Part shown: one piece after another, positions 4,210 to 20,618 of the stretch
How the letters are laid out: every line of letters starts with the position of its first letter
Numbering within the stretch: the first letter of the stretch is position 1
Assembly (NCBI GenBank): GCA_046045965.1
Contig: JBJOKS010000049.1
Span: 1-20,618 of the forward strand
Direction of reading: 5' to 3'
DNA: 20,618 bases
Source: Cyanobacteriota bacterium
GTDB lineage: Bacteria; Cyanobacteriota; Cyanobacteriia; Cyanobacteriales; Nostocaceae
The notes under the pieces: generated by a model
What the model was told of the DNA's origin: nothing
What the model saw: only the letters and a program-made list of their open reading frames with translations
Database searches by the model: none
Made by a program: the position numbers and the translations under genes

Positions 4210-6219
4210 ATGCGTCTTATTCGTCTTTTAGCTCTGGGAATTGCTGGTTTTATTGTTTCCTTTATTGCTGCTTTTTTCACTTCAGGTACATGGTTGAATA
4301 GAGCGATCGCCTCTGCTATGTGTACGGTTTTTAGCTTTAATTCGGCTATGTGTACAGTAGATTTAGGGCGATCGTCTGAGCGAGTAGTTGCAGCAATTCC
4401 TCCGGCTGTGGAAAAGACGATGTTTGATGGTTTGGGGAATTTGTTGGTGCAGCGTTCAAGGGAATTTGATGATGATCAACCAATAAATTCACCACCTGTA
4501 AGTAATCCACAAGCACCATCTTTTCCGCAAGATCCTGGAACTAACTTTACACCCCGAAGTTCAGAGTTTGATGATACTAATGTTGACAATGCAATACAAG
4601 ATGCTGCTAACCAGGCAGGACAAGATGTGCAAAAAATAGATAACGCTATAGATGAATATGCTAAACAAGCAGCAACAAATTCTGCTTGTGAATTTATGGG
4701 AAATTCCTCTAAAAATAGACTTCCTCTGTCAAATAATTCTAATTATAAAAAACTTAATCAGTCACCAGTTGAAAGTAAGCTCTGTAAGTACGATGGACGG
4801 TATGCTGTATTTGCTCAACATCCTCTTTTTCCAGGTGCAGATATTATTGAAACGGGACATCCATTAGTAGGTTTAGCGACCCAATCTTCTTTAAACAATG
4901 AGCTTGCTCATGAACATATATTCTTTTGTAATAACGGTAAAATAACTCGCAATGTAGGCTTTGGTCCCGATGGTCAATTCAGTTACTCTAATCAAGCAAT
5001 TACAACTGGTAGGGAAGAAAATGGAGGAAGAGTAGATAACTTTGAGCCTATTAACGATCAACTTTATGATACTGATATTATAAATAGCGTACTTGAGCAA
5101 AGTTATTCATGTAATCTTCAGGATAATCGTGGTTCATACGTCGGGTTAGGCAACAATTGTCAAAACTTTACGGAGAGGATAAGAAATAGATTTAATGAAA
5201 AGCTAAGAAAAGTTTGTAATAATAACTCACCAACATCTAGGTCATTAAAAACAGCAACAAGTTGGGGAGATCCTCACTTAGTCACCTTCGATGGCTTAAC
5301 ATACGACCACCATGCAATAGGAGAATTTATCCTTGCAAAATCAAATGATGGGACTTTTGAAGTACAAACCCGTGAAGCGGCTGTTCCTCGTACATCAAGC
5401 GTGGCATTAAACACGGCAGCAGCGATGAAAGTTGGTAATACTCGCGTTGCTTTTTATGCAGAAAATTTCCCTGATTCAGATACTAAAAATCCATTACGAG
5501 TTAATGGCAAACCTACTGTTATCCAAGGTGGTTCACTATCTTTACCTGGTGGGGGCAGTATTACTCAACTTAATCAAAGTTCTTACTTAGTGCAATGGCC
5601 AACTGGTGAACAGGTATCTATAGAAACGAGCAAGTTTGGCGGTTCTGGTTATGTGAATGTAAATCCTGGTTTACCAGAATCACGACAAGGACAGATAGTG
5701 GGATTACTTGGTAATTTTAACGGTAATCAAAATGATGACTTTAAGAGTCGTAATGGGCAAGTTTTACAACCACAATCATCAATAAAGCAGGTTAGCCAAA
5801 TTGCTCAAGGTTTTGCTAATTGGATACCAATTCCATTAAATCAAGTTGAGTCAGCATACCTTGATCAATTACATAAACAATTTGGTGATAGTTGGCGGAT
5901 TAGTCAATCAGAATCTTTGTTTGATTATGCACCAGGTAAAAACACAGAAAGTTTCACAAATCGAGCTTTTCCCAATGGGTATCAAATCCTGAGAATGCTA
6001 TTACCTCAACAGGTACAAATGGCTGAAAAAGTTTGTCGAGATGCTGGAGTACCAGCAGAACGTTTAGAGGGTTGTCTTTTTGATGTTGGTGCAACTGGAA
6101 ATGCTGATTTTGCTAAAGTTGCAGCTAATATGGCTACTAATTTCATTAAGAAACAACTTAATCAACAGATTCAGCAAAATCTTCCTATTCCGTTGAAAAT
6201 ACCTGGATTATCTTTTTAA
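4210..6219 (+). CDS. Secreted von Willebrand factor type D (VWD) domain protein with a central putative permuted papain-like (NlpC/P60-superfamily) domain
   Basis: N-terminal hydrophobic leader; VWD motifs SWGDPHLVTFDG, GEFILAK, GLLGNFNG, FGDSWRI, CLFDV; central HEHIFF..NVGFG..YVGLGNNCQNF. Confidence 0.85.
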   Translation: MRLIRLLALGIAGFIVSFIAAFFTSGTWLNRAIASAMCTVFSFNSAMCTVDLGRSSERVVAAIPPAVEKTMFDGLGNLLVQRSREFDDDQPINSPPVSNPQAPSFPQDPGTNFTPRSSEFDDTNVDNAIQDAANQAGQDVQKIDNAIDEYAKQAATNSACEFMGNSSKNRLPLSNNSNYKKLNQSPVESKLCKYDGRYAVFAQHPLFPGADIIETGHPLVGLATQSSLNNELAHEHIFFCNNGKITRNVGFGPDGQFSYSNQAITTGREENGGRVDNFEPINDQLYDTDIINSVLEQSYSCNLQDNRGSYVGLGNNCQNFTERIRNRFNEKLRKVCNNNSPTSRSLKTATSWGDPHLVTFDGLTYDHHAIGEFILAKSNDGTFEVQTREAAVPRTSSVALNTAAAMKVGNTRVAFYAENFPDSDTKNPLRVNGKPTVIQGGSLSLPGGGSITQLNQSSYLVQWPTGEQVSIETSKFGGSGYVNVNPGLPESRQGQIVGLLGNFNGNQNDDFKSRNGQVLQPQSSIKQVSQIAQGFANWIPIPLNQVESAYLDQLHKQFGDSWRISQSESLFDYAPGKNTESFTNRAFPNGYQILRMLLPQQVQMAEKVCRDAGVPAERLEGCLFDVGATGNADFAKVAANMATNFIKKQLNQQIQQNLPIPLKIPGLSF

Positions 6220-13222: not shown

Positions 13223-13270
13223 GATTAAGGAAACCCCAATAACAACTGGTATTACAGCCAAGGTTTTGGG

Positions 13271-13400
13271 GGTTCCTTCCATTGCCGACGGAGTTAGCTG
13301 ACGGGCTAAGACTGGAAGGTGTCTCTCAATTAAGATTAGCCCCAATTATTTGGTTCCTCCGTTCCAAATTCAGCTTTCATGAATTTGAATTAGGCTACCC
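13271..13400 (-). ncRNA. c-di-AMP (ydaO/yuaA) riboswitch upstream of usp and the permease
   Basis: Minus strand GCCTAAT..GGAACGGAGGAACCA..TTGGGGCTAATC..ACCTTCCAGTCTTAGCCCGTCAGCTAACTCCGTCGGCAATGGAAGGAA matches the family consensus; boundaries approximate. Confidence 0.9.
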
Positions 13401-16240: not shown

Positions 16241-17092
16241 TTACTTCACACTTCCTGGACGGTGAGTAACTAATTCTTGAAGCTTACCCACAGCGTAATC
16301 TAAAACCAAGCCAGTTAAGCCAATTACAAACACAGCTAAAAATACAGAACTGAGATTTAAACGACTCCATTCATCCCAAACAAAAAACCCAATTCCCACA
16401 CCACCTGTCAACATTTCTACAGCCACAATTACCAACCAAGCAATACCTAAACTAATTCGCAAACCTGTAAAAATATAGGGCAAACTAGCAGGCCAAATAA
16501 TTTTGATCATCTGCCGCCAACGTGGCATTTCTAACACTTGTGCCACATCTAAATAATCTTTGGAAACACTAGCCACTCCCAAGGCTGTATTAATAATAGT
16601 TGGCCAAAGGGAAGTAATGAAAATCACAAAAATAGCTGAAGGATCAGCCAAATTGAAGATAGCTAAGGAGATAGGCAACCAAGCTAGGGGTGAAACAGGT
16701 TTAAATATCTGAATAATAGGATTAAAAGCCAGCATTGCTGGTCTAGACATCCCAATTAAAAAGCCCAAGGGAATTGCTACTAATGCACCCAAACCAAATC
16801 CTAATATGACCCGGCGTAAACTTGCTAATAATAACCAACCAATTCCTAAATTACCTGGTCCTCGTTCATAAAAGGGATTTAAAATGTAGTCAAGATTAGC
16901 AATTAAAGCTTCTGGTGGTGTCGGCATTAATTCACGATTAGCAATTGCTACTATCCACCACAGGATAATTATCCCCGAAAACCCCACAACAGGCAATAAA
17001 AACTCATCCCGAAAAATGACAGGTTTTGCTTTTTTCCACGCAAATTGTCCAGCAACTGCAAAAATTGCAGCTAAATTCAGTTGCAAAATCAT
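16241..17092 (-). CDS. Nitrate/bicarbonate-type ABC transporter permease (NrtB/CmpB-like)
   Basis: SLRRVILGFGL, IPLGFLIG, PVSPLAWLPI, WPTIINTALGV, SLPYIFTGLRISLGIAWLVIVAVEML, GIGFFVWDEW. Confidence 0.93.
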   Translation of the reverse strand: MILQLNLAAIFAVAGQFAWKKAKPVIFRDEFLLPVVGFSGIIILWWIVAIANRELMPTPPEALIANLDYILNPFYERGPGNLGIGWLLLASLRRVILGFGLGALVAIPLGFLIGMSRPAMLAFNPIIQIFKPVSPLAWLPISLAIFNLADPSAIFVIFITSLWPTIINTALGVASVSKDYLDVAQVLEMPRWRQMIKIIWPASLPYIFTGLRISLGIAWLVIVAVEMLTGGVGIGFFVWDEWSRLNLSSVFLAVFVIGLTGLVLDYAVGKLQELVTHRPGSVK

Positions 17093-17194
17093 CTTGTAAC
17101 CTCAACAGAGTTCAGTACAGATACACTGAATCTGAGCAGTACCAGCCTTGGACACTGATGAGATCAAAACATTATCAAAATGCTGTCTCTTCAG

Positions 17195-17380
17195 TCTCCT
17201 CTCAATGCCTACGAAGTTAGCTGACGGACTAGGGTTGAGAGATACCCCTTTTTGCTCGATTTTGGCTTATTTTCTAACATTAAGTTGGAAATTTATTCAC
17301 CCATCAAAACAAAAATACGCCCCATAATTTGGTTCCTCCGTTCTAACGCTGTTGACTCTAACGCGTTAAATTAGGCTGAC
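17195..17380 (-). ncRNA. c-di-AMP (ydaO/yuaA) riboswitch upstream of the ABC operon, with an enlarged variable stem
   Basis: Minus strand GCCTAAT..GAACGGAGGAACCA..TGGGGCGTATT..CTCTCAACCCTAGTCCGTCAGCTAACTTCGTAGGCATTGAGAGGAG; boundaries approximate. Confidence 0.88.
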
Positions 17381-17656
17381 TTACTCACAATTAATAGTAA
17401 CAGCGAAAATCTAACATTGATGAATAGTAATAACATCAGTATTTAAAATAAAAATTAGTTACTTTACTACTTACATCAAGCGGTTCAATTGATTTTATGC
17501 TGTACTATCAACATATTTCATCAGGTTAGTAATTATTCAAAATACCGTATTCAAAATCGAGTAAGAATCATATTTTTCGCGTTATTATTGCTAATTTTTT
17601 GAAAAATTAACTTTTCTATATTCCTGTTAACCAGAAATATTCTAACTCCTGAATTC

Positions 17657-18340
17657 TTACAATAAACCTCGTTTTTTCAATTTAGCTAACGCATCCTCAG
17701 CCGCAGCCTTTTCTGCTTCTTTTTTATTTTTTCCTTTGGCTTCCCCATATTCTTTACCCTCTACTAATACTTTAGCGATAAATTCTGGTGCATGAGAGGG
17801 TCCGCCTATTTGTTCTGTTACATATTTCGGAGGATTTGCACCAATTTCTCGTTGTACCCATTCCTGAAAGCGATTTTTTGAATCTACATTAGAACGGGGT
17901 GCTATAATTAGTTCTGATACGGAATCAAATAATTGTTCAAGAATAGGGCGGAGTGGTTCAACATTACAATTATTATCTAAATAATAAGCGCCTACTATTG
18001 CTTCAAAGGTGCTACTGAGTAGGTTAGGGTTTTGATATCCTCCGTCTCTAATTGTTCCTTTTCCTAATCTCATTCTGAAGTCTAAACCGACTTCTACAGC
18101 GAATTTTGCTAGTTGTTTTTCTTCTACTAATGCAGAACGAAGACGAGTTAATTCATCTTCTCCTTTTTCGGGATGACGACGGTACAAATATTGACCGCTG
18201 ATGAAGTTGAGAATAGCATCACCGAGAAATTCTAAGCGTTCGTTGTGTTCTCCTTCTCCTGGGTTTTCGTTGACATAGGAACGGTGGGTTAATGCTTGTC
18301 GCAGGAGTTTTTCGTTATGGAATGTAAGAAGGTTGTGCAT
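17657..18340 (-). CDS. rnc: Ribonuclease III
   Basis: ALTHRSY, NERLEFLGDAIL signature, FEAIVGAYYLD, C-terminal dsRBD (DSKNRFQEWVQ..GPSHAPEF..GKNKKEAEKAAA). Confidence 0.95.
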   Translation of the reverse strand: MHNLLTFHNEKLLRQALTHRSYVNENPGEGEHNERLEFLGDAILNFISGQYLYRRHPEKGEDELTRLRSALVEEKQLAKFAVEVGLDFRMRLGKGTIRDGGYQNPNLLSSTFEAIVGAYYLDNNCNVEPLRPILEQLFDSVSELIIAPRSNVDSKNRFQEWVQREIGANPPKYVTEQIGGPSHAPEFIAKVLVEGKEYGEAKGKNKKEAEKAAAEDALAKLKKRGLL

Positions 18341-18375
18341 TTTTATTTTTTATCTTATTTGTGAATTTAATGGAA

Positions 18376-18400
18376 GGGCGGGCAAGATGCCCACCCCACA
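18376..18400. repeat. REP-like / SDR-like GC-rich palindrome
   Basis: GGGCGGGCA-AGA-TGCCCACCC(CACA) between the HNH gene and rnc. Confidence 0.65.
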
Positions 18401-18426
18401 AAATTACAACCTGAAAACTTCAGGTA

Positions 18427-18663
18427 TTACTGAGAAACAGGTAGTTTTACACCTGGTGGAAATAGACTATTTCCACGAGAACGGTTACAAGTTAAACAAG
18501 CTAGTCGTAAGTTCTCTAAAGAATTAGAACCACCACGACTTTTTGGGAGAAGATGTTCAATAGTTAGTTTATCTATTGACATTGACTTACGACACCACCA
18601 ACAACAAGAACCATATACATCAGACAGTTTTTGCTTCTTGCTGTGTTTTTGTTTGGAATTCAT
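18427..18663 (-). CDS. Minimal HNH endonuclease (78 aa, zinc-finger type)
   Basis: CWWC..LTIEHLLPKSRGGSNSLENLRLACLTCNRSRGN (CxxC..H..N..CxxCN). Confidence 0.88.
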   Translation of the reverse strand: MNSKQKHSKKQKLSDVYGSCCWWCRKSMSIDKLTIEHLLPKSRGGSNSLENLRLACLTCNRSRGNSLFPPGVKLPVSQ

Positions 18664-18797
18664 GTGAATTGGTTTCCGTTGATTTTTTTATCAACAGCAT
18701 CGGAAAACCACATATCTATTAGCATTAAAGCTAGGTGAGAGAGTAGATTAAAAAATCAGTTCTCTCTTATTTAGCTTCTCTAAATTAATCAGTTCAA

Positions 18798-19266
18798 GTC
18801 TCAGCAGTATGATTCCCAAATTACCGCCAACAGTTAGCTTCGTTCCTGCGGCTGAAATTTGACCTAAAAAAATTAACTTTTAACCAGCATTCCTGATGAA
18901 TTTGTGAGTTTGTTCAGTTTTGATAATTCTGTTTCTTCTGAAGTAGTATGTCGTAAATAAAATATTTTATCTATCGAGTTAGAACCCGGCGCTGAAGGTA
19001 AAAATATAGTTTTTCTACCGTCTGTAACAACCCAATTGTTTTGAGATTCTTTAATATATCCAAGATTCTCTCAGAATGGCATAATCAGTTTGCTGTTGCT
19101 AGTTCTGCTAACTTCAAAAGATTCTCACAAATACAATACCGCAAGGAATTTGAGTGCCATCACTAATTACTTTTCACTTGCTGCTTCTGCTGAAATTAAG
19201 TTTAACTTTCAGCCGAAGGAACAAAGCGAACTACTCGCGATAACTTAGGAATCCTGCTGCTGAGAC
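18798..19266 (-). other. 60-bp long-range imperfect inverted repeat (18798-18857 / 19207-19266), candidate structured RNA
   Basis: 49/60 identity between arms; 6 of 11 mismatches become G-U pairs on the minus strand. Confidence 0.75.
18873..19082 (-). pseudogene. Possible stop-interrupted small ORF (70 codons, TGA at codon 4) in the loop of the long inverted repeat
   Basis: MPF*ENLGYIKESQNNWVVTDGRKTIFLPSAPGSNSIDKIFYLRHTTSEETELSKLNKLTNSSGMLVKS*; no recognisable family. Confidence 0.3.
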
Positions 19267-19332
19267 AACCACCGACGTTTGCACGTTAGAGTTCTGCTTG
19301 AGATGGCAGTTATTTGGCTGTCTTAACTCCGT

Positions 19333-19361
19333 ATCTTAAAACACCTAAATTGGAATGTCAA
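19333..19361 (-). promoter_or_regulatory. Near-consensus sigma70-type promoter directed toward the HNH gene and rnc
   Basis: TTGACA (19361-19356), 17 bp spacer, TAAGAT (19338-19333); predicted TSS near 19326. Confidence 0.72.
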
Positions 19362-19471
19362 GTAGAATGTCAAGCCATATTTTTGTAAAAGATTGTAAAA
19401 ACCAATTTATTCTCTGTTCCCTAAAACTGGGAACTGCTATAGATTGATATCTCAACGCTTCTGCGTGAGAT

Positions 19472-19514
19472 AAAAAAATTGGGGTAACTCCAGAAAACCC
19501 AGAATTACCCCAAT
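19472..19514 (-). terminator. Intrinsic terminator of ftsH
   Basis: Minus strand AUUGGGGUAAUUCUGG..CUGGAGUUACCCCAAU then a U-run, about 20 nt after the stop. Confidence 0.85.
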
Positions 19515-19533
19515 CTTAAAAACCGACTAAAAA

Positions 19534-20616
19534 CTATGCAAAAGCAGCAGTTCTCACATCGTTATTGCCGAGAATTTCTTGCAATTCATCAGCGTCAACG
19601 GTTTCTTTATCAATCAACATTTGGGCAATTTGATCCAAAATGTGACGGTTGTTAACTAACACTTCTTTAGCACGAATGTAAGCTACATCTACTAATTTAC
19701 GAACTTCTTCATCAATTGCAGCGGCAGTTTCTTCCGAGAAATCACGCTCAGACATGATATCTCGACCTAAGAACATATTACCTTGTTGACGACCCAAAGC
19801 AACTGGACCCAAGCGATCGCTCATGCCAAAACGAGTTATCATTTGTCTAGCTACCCGTGCAACTTGTTGCAAGTCGTTGGAAGCACCGGTGGTAACTTCT
19901 TCTTCACCAAAGATGATTTCTTCAGCTAAACGACCACCTAAAGCCACGGCCATCTGATTTTCCAGATAAGCACGGCTATATAAACCAGTGTCCATGCGGT
20001 CTTCGCTAGGAGTAAACCAAGTCAAACCACCAGCACGACCACGGGGAATAATGCTAATTTTCTGTACAGGGTCATAGTCAGGCATTAAAGCACCAACTAA
20101 AGCGTGACCAGCTTCGTGATAAGCAACCAAGGTTTTGCGCTTTTCGCTCATTACGCGGTCTTTCTTTTCTGGACCCGCTAGTACACGATCAATAGCATCA
20201 TTAATTTCATCCATCGCAATTTCGGTTAAGTTGCGACGTGCTGCTAAAATTGCTGCTTCGTTCAACAGGTTAGATAAGTCTGCACCGGTAAACCCAGGGG
20301 TACGACGAGCAATTTTATCCAAGTCCACATCTTTAGATAAGGTTTTACCCCGTGCGTGAACTTTGAGAATTTCACTGCGTCCACCGTAGTCGGGACGGTC
20401 TACCACTACTTGACGGTCAAAACGACCAGGACGCAATAAAGCAGCATCGAGAACGTCAGGACGGTTGGTTGCAGCAATGATGATGATGCCGGTGTTACCT
20501 TCAAAACCATCCATTTCGGTGAGTAACTGGTTGAGGGTTTGTTCCCGTTCGTCGTTACCACCACCTAAACCTGCACCCCGTTGACGACCTACTGCGTCAA
20601 TTTCATCAATGAAGAC
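19534..20616 (-). CDS. ftsH: ATP-dependent zinc metalloprotease FtsH (FtsH3-like), 5'-truncated by window edge
   Basis: Frame stays open to the window edge: [55 protein letters not shown] zinc motif, [19 protein letters not shown]. Confidence 0.97.
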
Positions 20617-20618
20617 GA

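Follow-up and report, generated by a model that had tools for sequence, protein, structure and literature searches.

The window, that is, the whole stretch of 20,618 nucleotides that we analyzed, carries on its minus strand a cassette in which a promoter, a long structured leader, a gene for a small HNH nuclease and a gene for an accessory RNase III (rnc) follow the end of ftsH. Its parts, in the 5′ to 3′ order of the minus strand, are as follows.

19534, minus strand: end of ftsH, a boundary gene outside the cassette
19475-19517, minus strand: 20-pair terminator-like stem of ftsH from the hairpin scan, a boundary only and outside the cassette
19333-19361, minus strand: sigma-70-type promoter TTGACA-17-TAAGAT, with a predicted start at about 19326
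18664-19326, minus strand: predicted 5′ leader RNA of 663 nt, folding z-score -9.4, no Rfam family
19196-19266, minus strand: 5′ arm of the long hairpin, its first bases being the near-invariant basal GTCTCAG (repeat and alignment)
18869-19195, minus strand: lineage-specific loop insert of 327 nt, also in L031, folding z-score -2.3
18798-18868, minus strand: 3′ arm of the long hairpin, its last bases being CTGAGAC (repeat and alignment)
18676-18697, minus strand: small hairpin in the predicted fold, pairing the likely Shine-Dalgarno (SD) GGA of the HNH gene
18427-18663, minus strand: mini-HNH nuclease of 78 aa with a CxxC..CxxC Zn-finger and H37/N51/N60 (Pfam)
18409-18425, minus strand: terminator-like hairpin of 7 pairs, 2 bases past the HNH stop (hairpin scan)
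18376-18396, minus strand: REP-like palindrome, multicopy in the genome with 11 exact copies outside its own contig
17657-18340, minus strand: accessory RNase III (rnc) of 227 aa with a dsRBD (Pfam; TIGR02191)

Much of this layout had been read from the letters in an earlier note, and its main elements hold: the promoter lies at 19361-19333 behind the ftsH stem at 19517-19475, the distance of about 660 nt from promoter to HNH measures 663 nt as a leader, the stand-alone open reading frame at 18663-18427 matches HNH_5, and the RNase III gene at 18340-17657 begins after a gap of 86 nt. The 60-bp long-range stem that it described consists of two 71-nt arms that are 79% complementary and form 64 predicted pairs, within a leader that folds far better than its shuffles (z-score above). 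The several local hairpins fall in the 327-nt loop insert, which is common to the window and L031, missing from most homologues and absent from the 38 that we aligned. Homologue leaders are mostly ∼310-510 nt long with usual hairpins of 150-215 nt, and the 660 nt seen here, untypical of the homologues, result from this insert in the loop. The comparison with Rfam that the note had proposed, run over 18300-19550 in both gathering and E-value modes, returned no family near its gathering score. The leader is present as a single copy in its own genome, which rules out a multicopy element or MITE.

The neighborhood of ftsH is incidental, and this gene is no member of the cassette. Among 30 leader-matched loci inspected with 1.5-kb flanks it adjoins the cassette at the window's own locus only, it lies within 5 kb in 12 of 80 RNase III loci (the best 80 of 315), and at L040 and L096, the two loci where its position was read, it is downstream and on the opposite strand.

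The promoter matches the consensus at 10 of 12 positions and ranks first among the 12 promoter-like sites of 16500-20618, a region in which 10.1 such sites are expected by chance, so the scan by itself is no evidence; a TTGACA-type hexamer recurs at the corresponding distance in 52 of 62 leaders inspected. On the opposite strand of the leader the promoter scan, which stands here in place of strand-specific reads, detected no site of high score. The earlier statement that no clear terminator separates HNH from rnc needs correction, as the terminator-like hairpin at 18425-18409 and then the REP-like palindrome lie between them. The terminator scan found 7 hairpins where 3.4 were expected, which makes this one weak taken singly; NYN-type homologues (see below) have a G+C stem and a T-run at the matching position, between NYN and rnc. 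In metatranscriptome run X1 a single mismatch-free contig of mean depth 604 covers 19316-18430, starting 10 nt inside the predicted start and reaching the HNH stop, while an rnc contig without mismatch (18397-17789) has depth 6 and an ftsH contig depth 65; the contigs break between 18430 and 18397, that is, at the terminator-like hairpin. Run X2 yields one contig that spans HNH and rnc, its lack of a contig over 18760-19503 being uninformative. Contigs from such runs reveal neither ends, strand nor level, may include DNA and have depths that cannot rank genes, and at most these fit a leader-nuclease RNA that is abundant, with little read-through into rnc.

BLAST with the leader found matches in 29 of 201 genomes of the family, nearly always upstream of an accessory RNase III. 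We read the gene upstream of rnc at the best 80 of 315 relatives of this RNase III in named genomes: it encodes a NYN protein in 45 and a mini-HNH in 17 (some of them broken), a Swt1-HEPN fused to RNase III takes its place in 3, a candidate HEPN-like gene with an RxxxxH motif in 1 (L077), 13 have no such gene and 1 lies at a contig edge. Taking the HNH as the query instead, we inspected the best 30 of its 48 matches across the 251 genomes searched from the order (window included): RNase III sequence lies downstream in 22 and is missing in 7, 1 is cut by a contig end, and an inverted repeat lies upstream of the HNH in 18 of the 22 with RNase III downstream and in 1 of the 7 without; the two locus sets overlap and their related members are not independent. 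The earlier note had allowed that the adjacency of HNH and rnc might be unique to this genome and that the leader might not be conserved next to HNH homologues, and neither is the case; on its third point, a transcription start near 19326, the unbroken X1 contig over 19316-18430 gives no more than a hint. Carriers of the cassette are numerous among filamentous cyanobacteria and, outside Nostocales, include Leptolyngbyaceae, Oscillatoriaceae and further groups, and the nearest named relatives of the window's enzyme in the RNase III tree are from Anabaena and Dolichospermum.

The HNH is just one among several exchangeable slot nucleases. Mapped on a quickly built tree of 79 RNase III rows, the HNH label requires 16 changes for 18 rows, compared to a mean of 16.4 when labels are shuffled, and at least 10 of these changes are forced by well-supported branches. 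Between the window and L034 the HNH genes differ by a dS of only 0.02 beside a dS of 0.52 for rnc, which indicates a recent slot exchange, as expected of conflict genes, and slot genes are repeatedly found broken (L042, L045, L063, L089 and L213). Around the cassette, Uma2 and XisH/XisI genes occur at 18 of 30 loci, among housekeeping genes. A Pfam search of 85 neighbor genes gave no named multi-gene defense system, viral contigs held no relative of the RNase III, and plasmids held none above 60% identity; this lack of viral or plasmid copies and of named defense neighbors speaks against a defense role. Searching viral contigs with two hairpin-start patterns yielded 11 and 91 matches, and the loci screened from these had neither the hairpin family nor the genes. 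The same kind of scan in metagenomes gave 117 matches, mostly unrelated gut sequence, with 6 true hairpins, and the only one of these with flanks (L247) has the order hairpin-HNH-rnc.

The mini-HNH is above the Pfam cut-off for HNH_5 (E = 4.6e-12) and has the H-N-N/H residues and CxxC pairs of Zn-finger-type HNH endonucleases, with C21, C24, H37, N51, C56, C59 and N60 invariant in 24 of 24 aligned sequences and a dN/dS of 0.18 over 66 pairs. Foldseek ranked the Cas9 HNH domain first for its model, with no match reaching an E-value of 0.001 or better. The NYN slot proteins retain their acidic residues in the alignment and have a predicted MARF1-like fold (Z 17.9, rmsd 2.6, 144 aligned), and their winged-helix tail is a tie between the Tejas LOTUS domain (Z 8.5) and other winged helices (Z 9.4). 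HNH, NYN and HEPN are each found fused to an accessory-type RNase III; the fusions confirmed by Pfam are HNH-RNase III (P0003), HNH-dsRBD (P0002, L215), NYN-RNase III (L209) and HEPN-RNase III (L097, L110), and the two HNH types suggest that the HNH acts on RNA.

The accessory RNase III scores 225 bits with TIGR02191 (cut-off 166), contains a dsrm domain and the class I signature, and has E37, D41 and E113, with Ser110 at the position of E. coli D114 and thus without the full set of four acidic residues of class I. At this position, the third of the metal-binding residues, 75 of 79 homologues have serine instead of Asp; the Asp is kept in the housekeeping rnc and many distant members, among them a second rnc, 30% identical, on contig C13 of the same genome, and Drosha domain a has an Asn at the equivalent position. 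As the E. coli D114A variant is weak in vitro and shows low dsRNA binding (Table 1 of PMC8708148), the accessory enzyme may, by analogy, cut poorly. Every genome of the family that we sampled (37/37) has its gene, a near-universal occurrence that, unlike the patchy one of defense genes, argues against a role in defense. Cyanobacterial model strains have two RNase III genes each, and the passages on them in PMC10989914 mention neither an upstream hairpin nor a nuclease; this review also points out that the All4107 protein assayed earlier was 40 residues short.

On sequence grounds, selection acts on the hairpin as a structure of the RNA. RNAalifold of 38 aligned homologues gives 52 consensus pairs, 37 of them with compensatory changes, and 95.6% of the cells in the consensus pair, a value that none of 500 shuffles reached and that compares to 34-47% in slid controls. 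In a strand-neutral alignment of the arms the transcribed strand shows 339 G-U against 154 A-C appositions, and G-U outnumbers A-C on this strand in 42 of 46 hairpins. Template switching can homogenize long palindromes, so part of the pairing may be mutational, and this strand bias is not fully decisive for RNA because G-T wobble also stabilizes single-stranded DNA hairpins. The base of the stem (GTCTCA/TGAGAC or a near variant) is kept even where the remaining stem shows no sequence likeness, which suggests that some protein reads this basal motif. With 60-90 pairs and bulges the anatomy of the hairpins is pri-miRNA-like. The close relatives L096 and L094 have very different stems, each still fully paired, and near-identical hairpins stand before HNH at L040 and L090 and before NYN at L041 and L094.

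The hairpin goes with the nuclease rather than with rnc. Among the best 80 of 315 RNase III loci, 59 of the 63 that have a slot gene carry one of at least 55 pairs upstream, compared to 0 of the 13 that have none (a count that omits 4 of the 80, namely 3 HEPN fusions and 1 contig edge), and the 4 slot loci that lack it comprise three gene fragments and one intact HNH. HEPN-RNase III fusion genes never have it (0/14), and at L082 two hairpin-NYN units precede a single rnc. The exceptions are L200, with hairpin and rnc and no nuclease found, L210, with hairpin and HNH and no rnc within 1.7 kb, and L224 and L230, which have HNH and rnc and no long repeat.

In 44 leaders (those with uncertain starts or no promoter pattern being excluded) pairing is predicted for the slot gene's ribosome-binding site, with a mean unpaired probability of 0.09. 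Removing the 5′ part in silico closes the SD further in 8 of the 44 and opens it in 1, so that the predicted switch is weak, which counts against gating of the nuclease by the leader. Pairing of the 5′ end that would open the ribosome-binding site is predicted with at least 3 pairs in 12 of the 44 leaders, from which we draw no support.

The mechanism that we favor, as the earlier note had also inferred, is such a gate, in which RNase III would bind or cut the leader and thereby keep a toxic nuclease down, its loss or titration releasing the nuclease; we put the chances of this being right at about even, and favor it because the hairpin accompanies the slot gene and is missing where that gene is missing, because the slot turns over like a conflict gene, and because the stem covaries, fusions couple the nucleases to RNase III or its dsRBD and RNase III is established to cut 5′ UTR structures elsewhere. 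Transcription from the strong promoter would give an RNA of leader and nuclease and would for the most part stop at the terminator-like element past the nuclease, and the accessory RNase III would be made through read-through of this element. The nuclease would be held down first by its paired ribosome-binding site and second by the co-encoded RNase III, which would bind or cut the long hairpin and so limit the message. If RNase III were inhibited, or soaked up by excess dsRNA (e.g. overlapping phage or plasmid transcripts), the nuclease would be released and would harm the invader or the cell. Cutting of the hairpin could instead activate the nuclease. Against the gate stand Ser110, with which the enzyme may cut poorly, the near-universal occurrence of the RNase III gene and, in the portion of PMC5829567 on PCC 7002, the report that no autoregulation of RNase III was seen in this strain. 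A more far-reaching version, which we offer tentatively and with some doubt, is a dsRNA-sensing immune module in which the altered RNase III and the pri-miRNA-like hairpin would together unleash or load an exchangeable HNH, NYN or HEPN nuclease; the sensor would report excess foreign dsRNA or an inhibitor of RNase III, and a Dicer-like step would leave the nuclease either unleashed or loaded with short duplexes.

It is also conceivable, though we think it unlikely, that the cassette is an RNA-turnover operon with rncO-type feedback, in which RNase III would adjust its own amount by cutting the leader and the nuclease beside it would finish the dsRNA products, entailing neither toxicity nor defense. 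Cutting of a 5′ UTR by RNase III is a known logic (described in the parts of PMC5829567 on rnc leaders), each of the three nucleases occurs fused to RNase III or a dsRBD, one X2 contig spans HNH and rnc, and the MARF1-like NYN with its winged-helix or LOTUS-like tail has an architecture proposed as an RNA-degradation unit in the section of PMC5499597 on such proteins. Such an operon would not explain why the hairpin is gone when the nuclease is gone though rnc stays (0/13, with exceptions such as L200) or why a terminator-like element parts the nuclease from rnc, and housekeeping genes do not usually exchange unrelated folds in so nearly random a fashion.

Lower still is our estimate for a Dicer-like pathway, in which RNase III would dice the hairpin and the resulting short duplexes would guide the nuclease, or arm it allosterically, in a ribonucleoprotein. 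The pri-miRNA-like anatomy with its near-invariant base, the stems of L096 and L094 that differ while remaining fully paired, and fusions that physically couple nuclease to RNase III all fit this idea, but the longest exact genome matches of the two arms (16 and 14 nt) lie within the range of shuffles (13-18 nt), phage collections give no match better than E 0.5, the hairpin is a single copy without a spacer array, and the 78-aa HNH has no evident guide-binding domain. Searches for guide targets in its own genome, annotated phages and five related genomes returned chance-level matches only. A candidate target in a PKS gene (19/20 match, in 5/5 Nostoc-type genomes) was rejected, as the window's arm is unmatched at the orthologous site and the co-variation check failed.

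The earlier proposal that cleavage releases a guide or antitoxin RNA is weakened in both its forms by the absence of a target in genome or phage and by one hairpin serving both HNH and NYN, whose folds are unrelated. In type III systems the antitoxins are tandem pseudoknot repeats, each specific to its cognate toxin. By the logic of such toxin-antitoxin systems, abundant hairpin would block the nuclease as an antitoxin or decoy until host transcription stops or RNase III removes it; the hairpin does travel and duplicate with the nuclease, the HNH-dsRBD fusion suggests a dsRNA ligand, and the X1 depths of leader-HNH and rnc (604 and 6) are a weak hint, as depth cannot rank genes. With near-identical hairpins beside HNH and NYN and no tandem pseudoknot repeats seen in the leader, we consider this antitoxin very unlikely.

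Most improbable of all is a DNA-level palindrome, attC-like or transposon-end-like, whose single-stranded hairpin would drive slot exchange and whose pairing would stem from DNA selection or template switching: it draws on the fixed terminal motif with variable interior, the fast slot exchange and a strand bias that G-T wobble leaves not fully decisive, and is countered by ends of the GTCTCAG/CTGAGAC type without the AAC/GTT triad in 38 of 38, by the single copy 5′ of the gene just behind a promoter, and by the RNA-run contig that covers the region. The attC consensus has RYYYAAC..GTTRRRY ends and lies 3′ of the cassette gene. An integron attC site was thus rejected, as the ends differ in 38/38, the hairpin sits 5′ of its gene, and the genome has no integrase over the cut-off.

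RNase III cuts the 5′ UTR structure of rnc in E. coli, S. aureus and S. coelicolor, and like rncO, S. aureus rnc and S. coelicolor absB as PMC5829567 presents them in its account of rnc leaders, the cassette has a long stem in the leader of a co-oriented unit containing rnc. Unlike these, it has no Rfam match, a nuclease and a terminator-like element between stem and rnc, a stem that tracks the nuclease instead of rnc (absent from nuclease-less loci and HEPN fusions alike), and an RNase III that is an accessory copy in which Ser takes the place of one catalytic Asp. The cyanobacterial “two-headed RNases”, Swt1-like HEPN-RNase III-dsRBD proteins, have already been published (PMC3710099); they belong to the same RNase III clade and are the fusions that take the cassette position in 3 of the best 80 of 315 loci, but are single fused proteins lacking the hairpin, and the passages on them in that paper are silent on a leader RNA and on alternatives of the NYN or HNH type. 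The commonest slot gene resembles the MARF1/LabA-like NYN-OST-HTH/LOTUS nucleases in joining NYN to a winged-helix tail, and where PMC5499597 and PMC2848206 treat these nucleases they connect them neither with cyanobacteria nor with RNase III or a leader hairpin. Synechococcus PCC 7002 has in A2542 a dispensable second RNase III without a role in rRNA maturation that limits the copy number of plasmid pAQ3 (in the part of PMC5829567 on this gene), which resembles the window's rnc as a second full-length cyanobacterial RNase III, a likeness by description alone.

The Cas9, OMEGA IscB and HEARO systems likewise have an HNH domain of the same fold beside a structured RNA, whereas the window's protein has 78 aa and no RuvC, and its leader neither matches HEARO or omega RNA nor contains a variable guide with a target. 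OMEGA IscB/HEARO was accordingly rejected on size, on the lack of an Rfam match and on a score with NCBIfam IscB (E 5.8e-10) of 38.8 bits against a cut-off of 175. In type V GhoST and type I hok/Sok systems, an RNase acts on the toxin message or the ribosome-binding site is sequestered. The proposed logic, an RNase on a toxin message with a sequestered ribosome-binding site, would be like theirs; unlike them, no antisense RNA gene was found or is needed, the duplex being intramolecular, and the effector is a nuclease of several folds and a putative toxin. Septu (PtuAB) was rejected, since ∼60 of at least 200 PtuB profile positions are matched and the flanks are ftsH and rnc, not PtuA, and PADLOC gave no match for the RNase III. 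No named family takes in the locus, in agreement with the earlier note, which had recognized no named system, and our search of paper listings and main-text passages found no published description of the cassette, though the leader may be listed unannotated in published start-site or small-RNA tables for Nostoc.

This cassette of RNA, nuclease and RNase III is thus real and apparently undescribed; most likely it is a variant of leader control by RNase III, which as a type of regulation is known, and possibly a new dsRNA-sensing defense. Its hairpin adds a strongly covarying RNA family that is missing from Rfam, and the cassette is a possible reason for most cyanobacteria keeping a second, dispensable RNase III. 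If the gating mechanism is true, RNase III and its own hairpin substrate would form a bacterial tripwire for dsRNA or for inhibitors of RNase III, coupled to a nuclease slot with the turnover of a conflict gene.

Several loci carry altered versions of the cassette, in which a promoter and a long leader hairpin precede a nuclease gene (mini-HNH or NYN) and an accessory RNase III gene (rnc). At L153 and L154 the hairpin and an HNH gene stand in a single row with two RNase III genes, one of them fused to HEPN, and at L044, L047 and L042 the position of the cassette hairpin is taken by long hairpins of other sequence that lack the usual basal motif (GTCTCA/TGAGAC), with a short NYN gene or a broken HNH gene behind them. 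Locus L450 holds a 578-nt exact duplicate (2150-2727 and 5277-5854) that spans the end of the leader and the start of NYN, its copy sitting 3.1 kb downstream of the cassette.

Two further loci, L080 and L071, are remnants of cassettes that have lost the nuclease: the former keeps a miniature hairpin with the basal motif ∼230-180 nt upstream of rnc, and the latter only the promoter and the 5′ arm. A sister mini-HNH subfamily (L219, L222, L225, L226 and L228) has neither hairpin nor rnc, and is followed every time by one and the same two-gene pair.

The window contains the following additional features:

18376-18396: REP-like palindrome between HNH and rnc, with dozens of near copies genome-wide
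17191-17387, minus strand: c-di-AMP (ydaO/yuaA) riboswitch downstream of rnc, preceding a nitrate/bicarbonate-type ABC transporter operon
13268-13385, minus strand: c-di-AMP (ydaO/yuaA) riboswitch behind the ATPase gene of that operon
4210-6219, plus strand: 669-aa ORF, its features read by eye from the translation

Other species, too, have the REP-like palindrome in the interval from HNH to rnc. Downstream of the second riboswitch lie genes for a universal-stress-like protein and a membrane transporter. The 669-aa product seems to have an N-terminus of the secreted type, along with a region resembling von Willebrand D.

Finally, mini-HNH occurs in in-frame fusions, its partner being a dsRNA-binding domain (L215:1210-1710, minus strand, and protein P0002) or an entire RNase III (protein P0003). 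These fusions suggest that the HNH acts on RNA.
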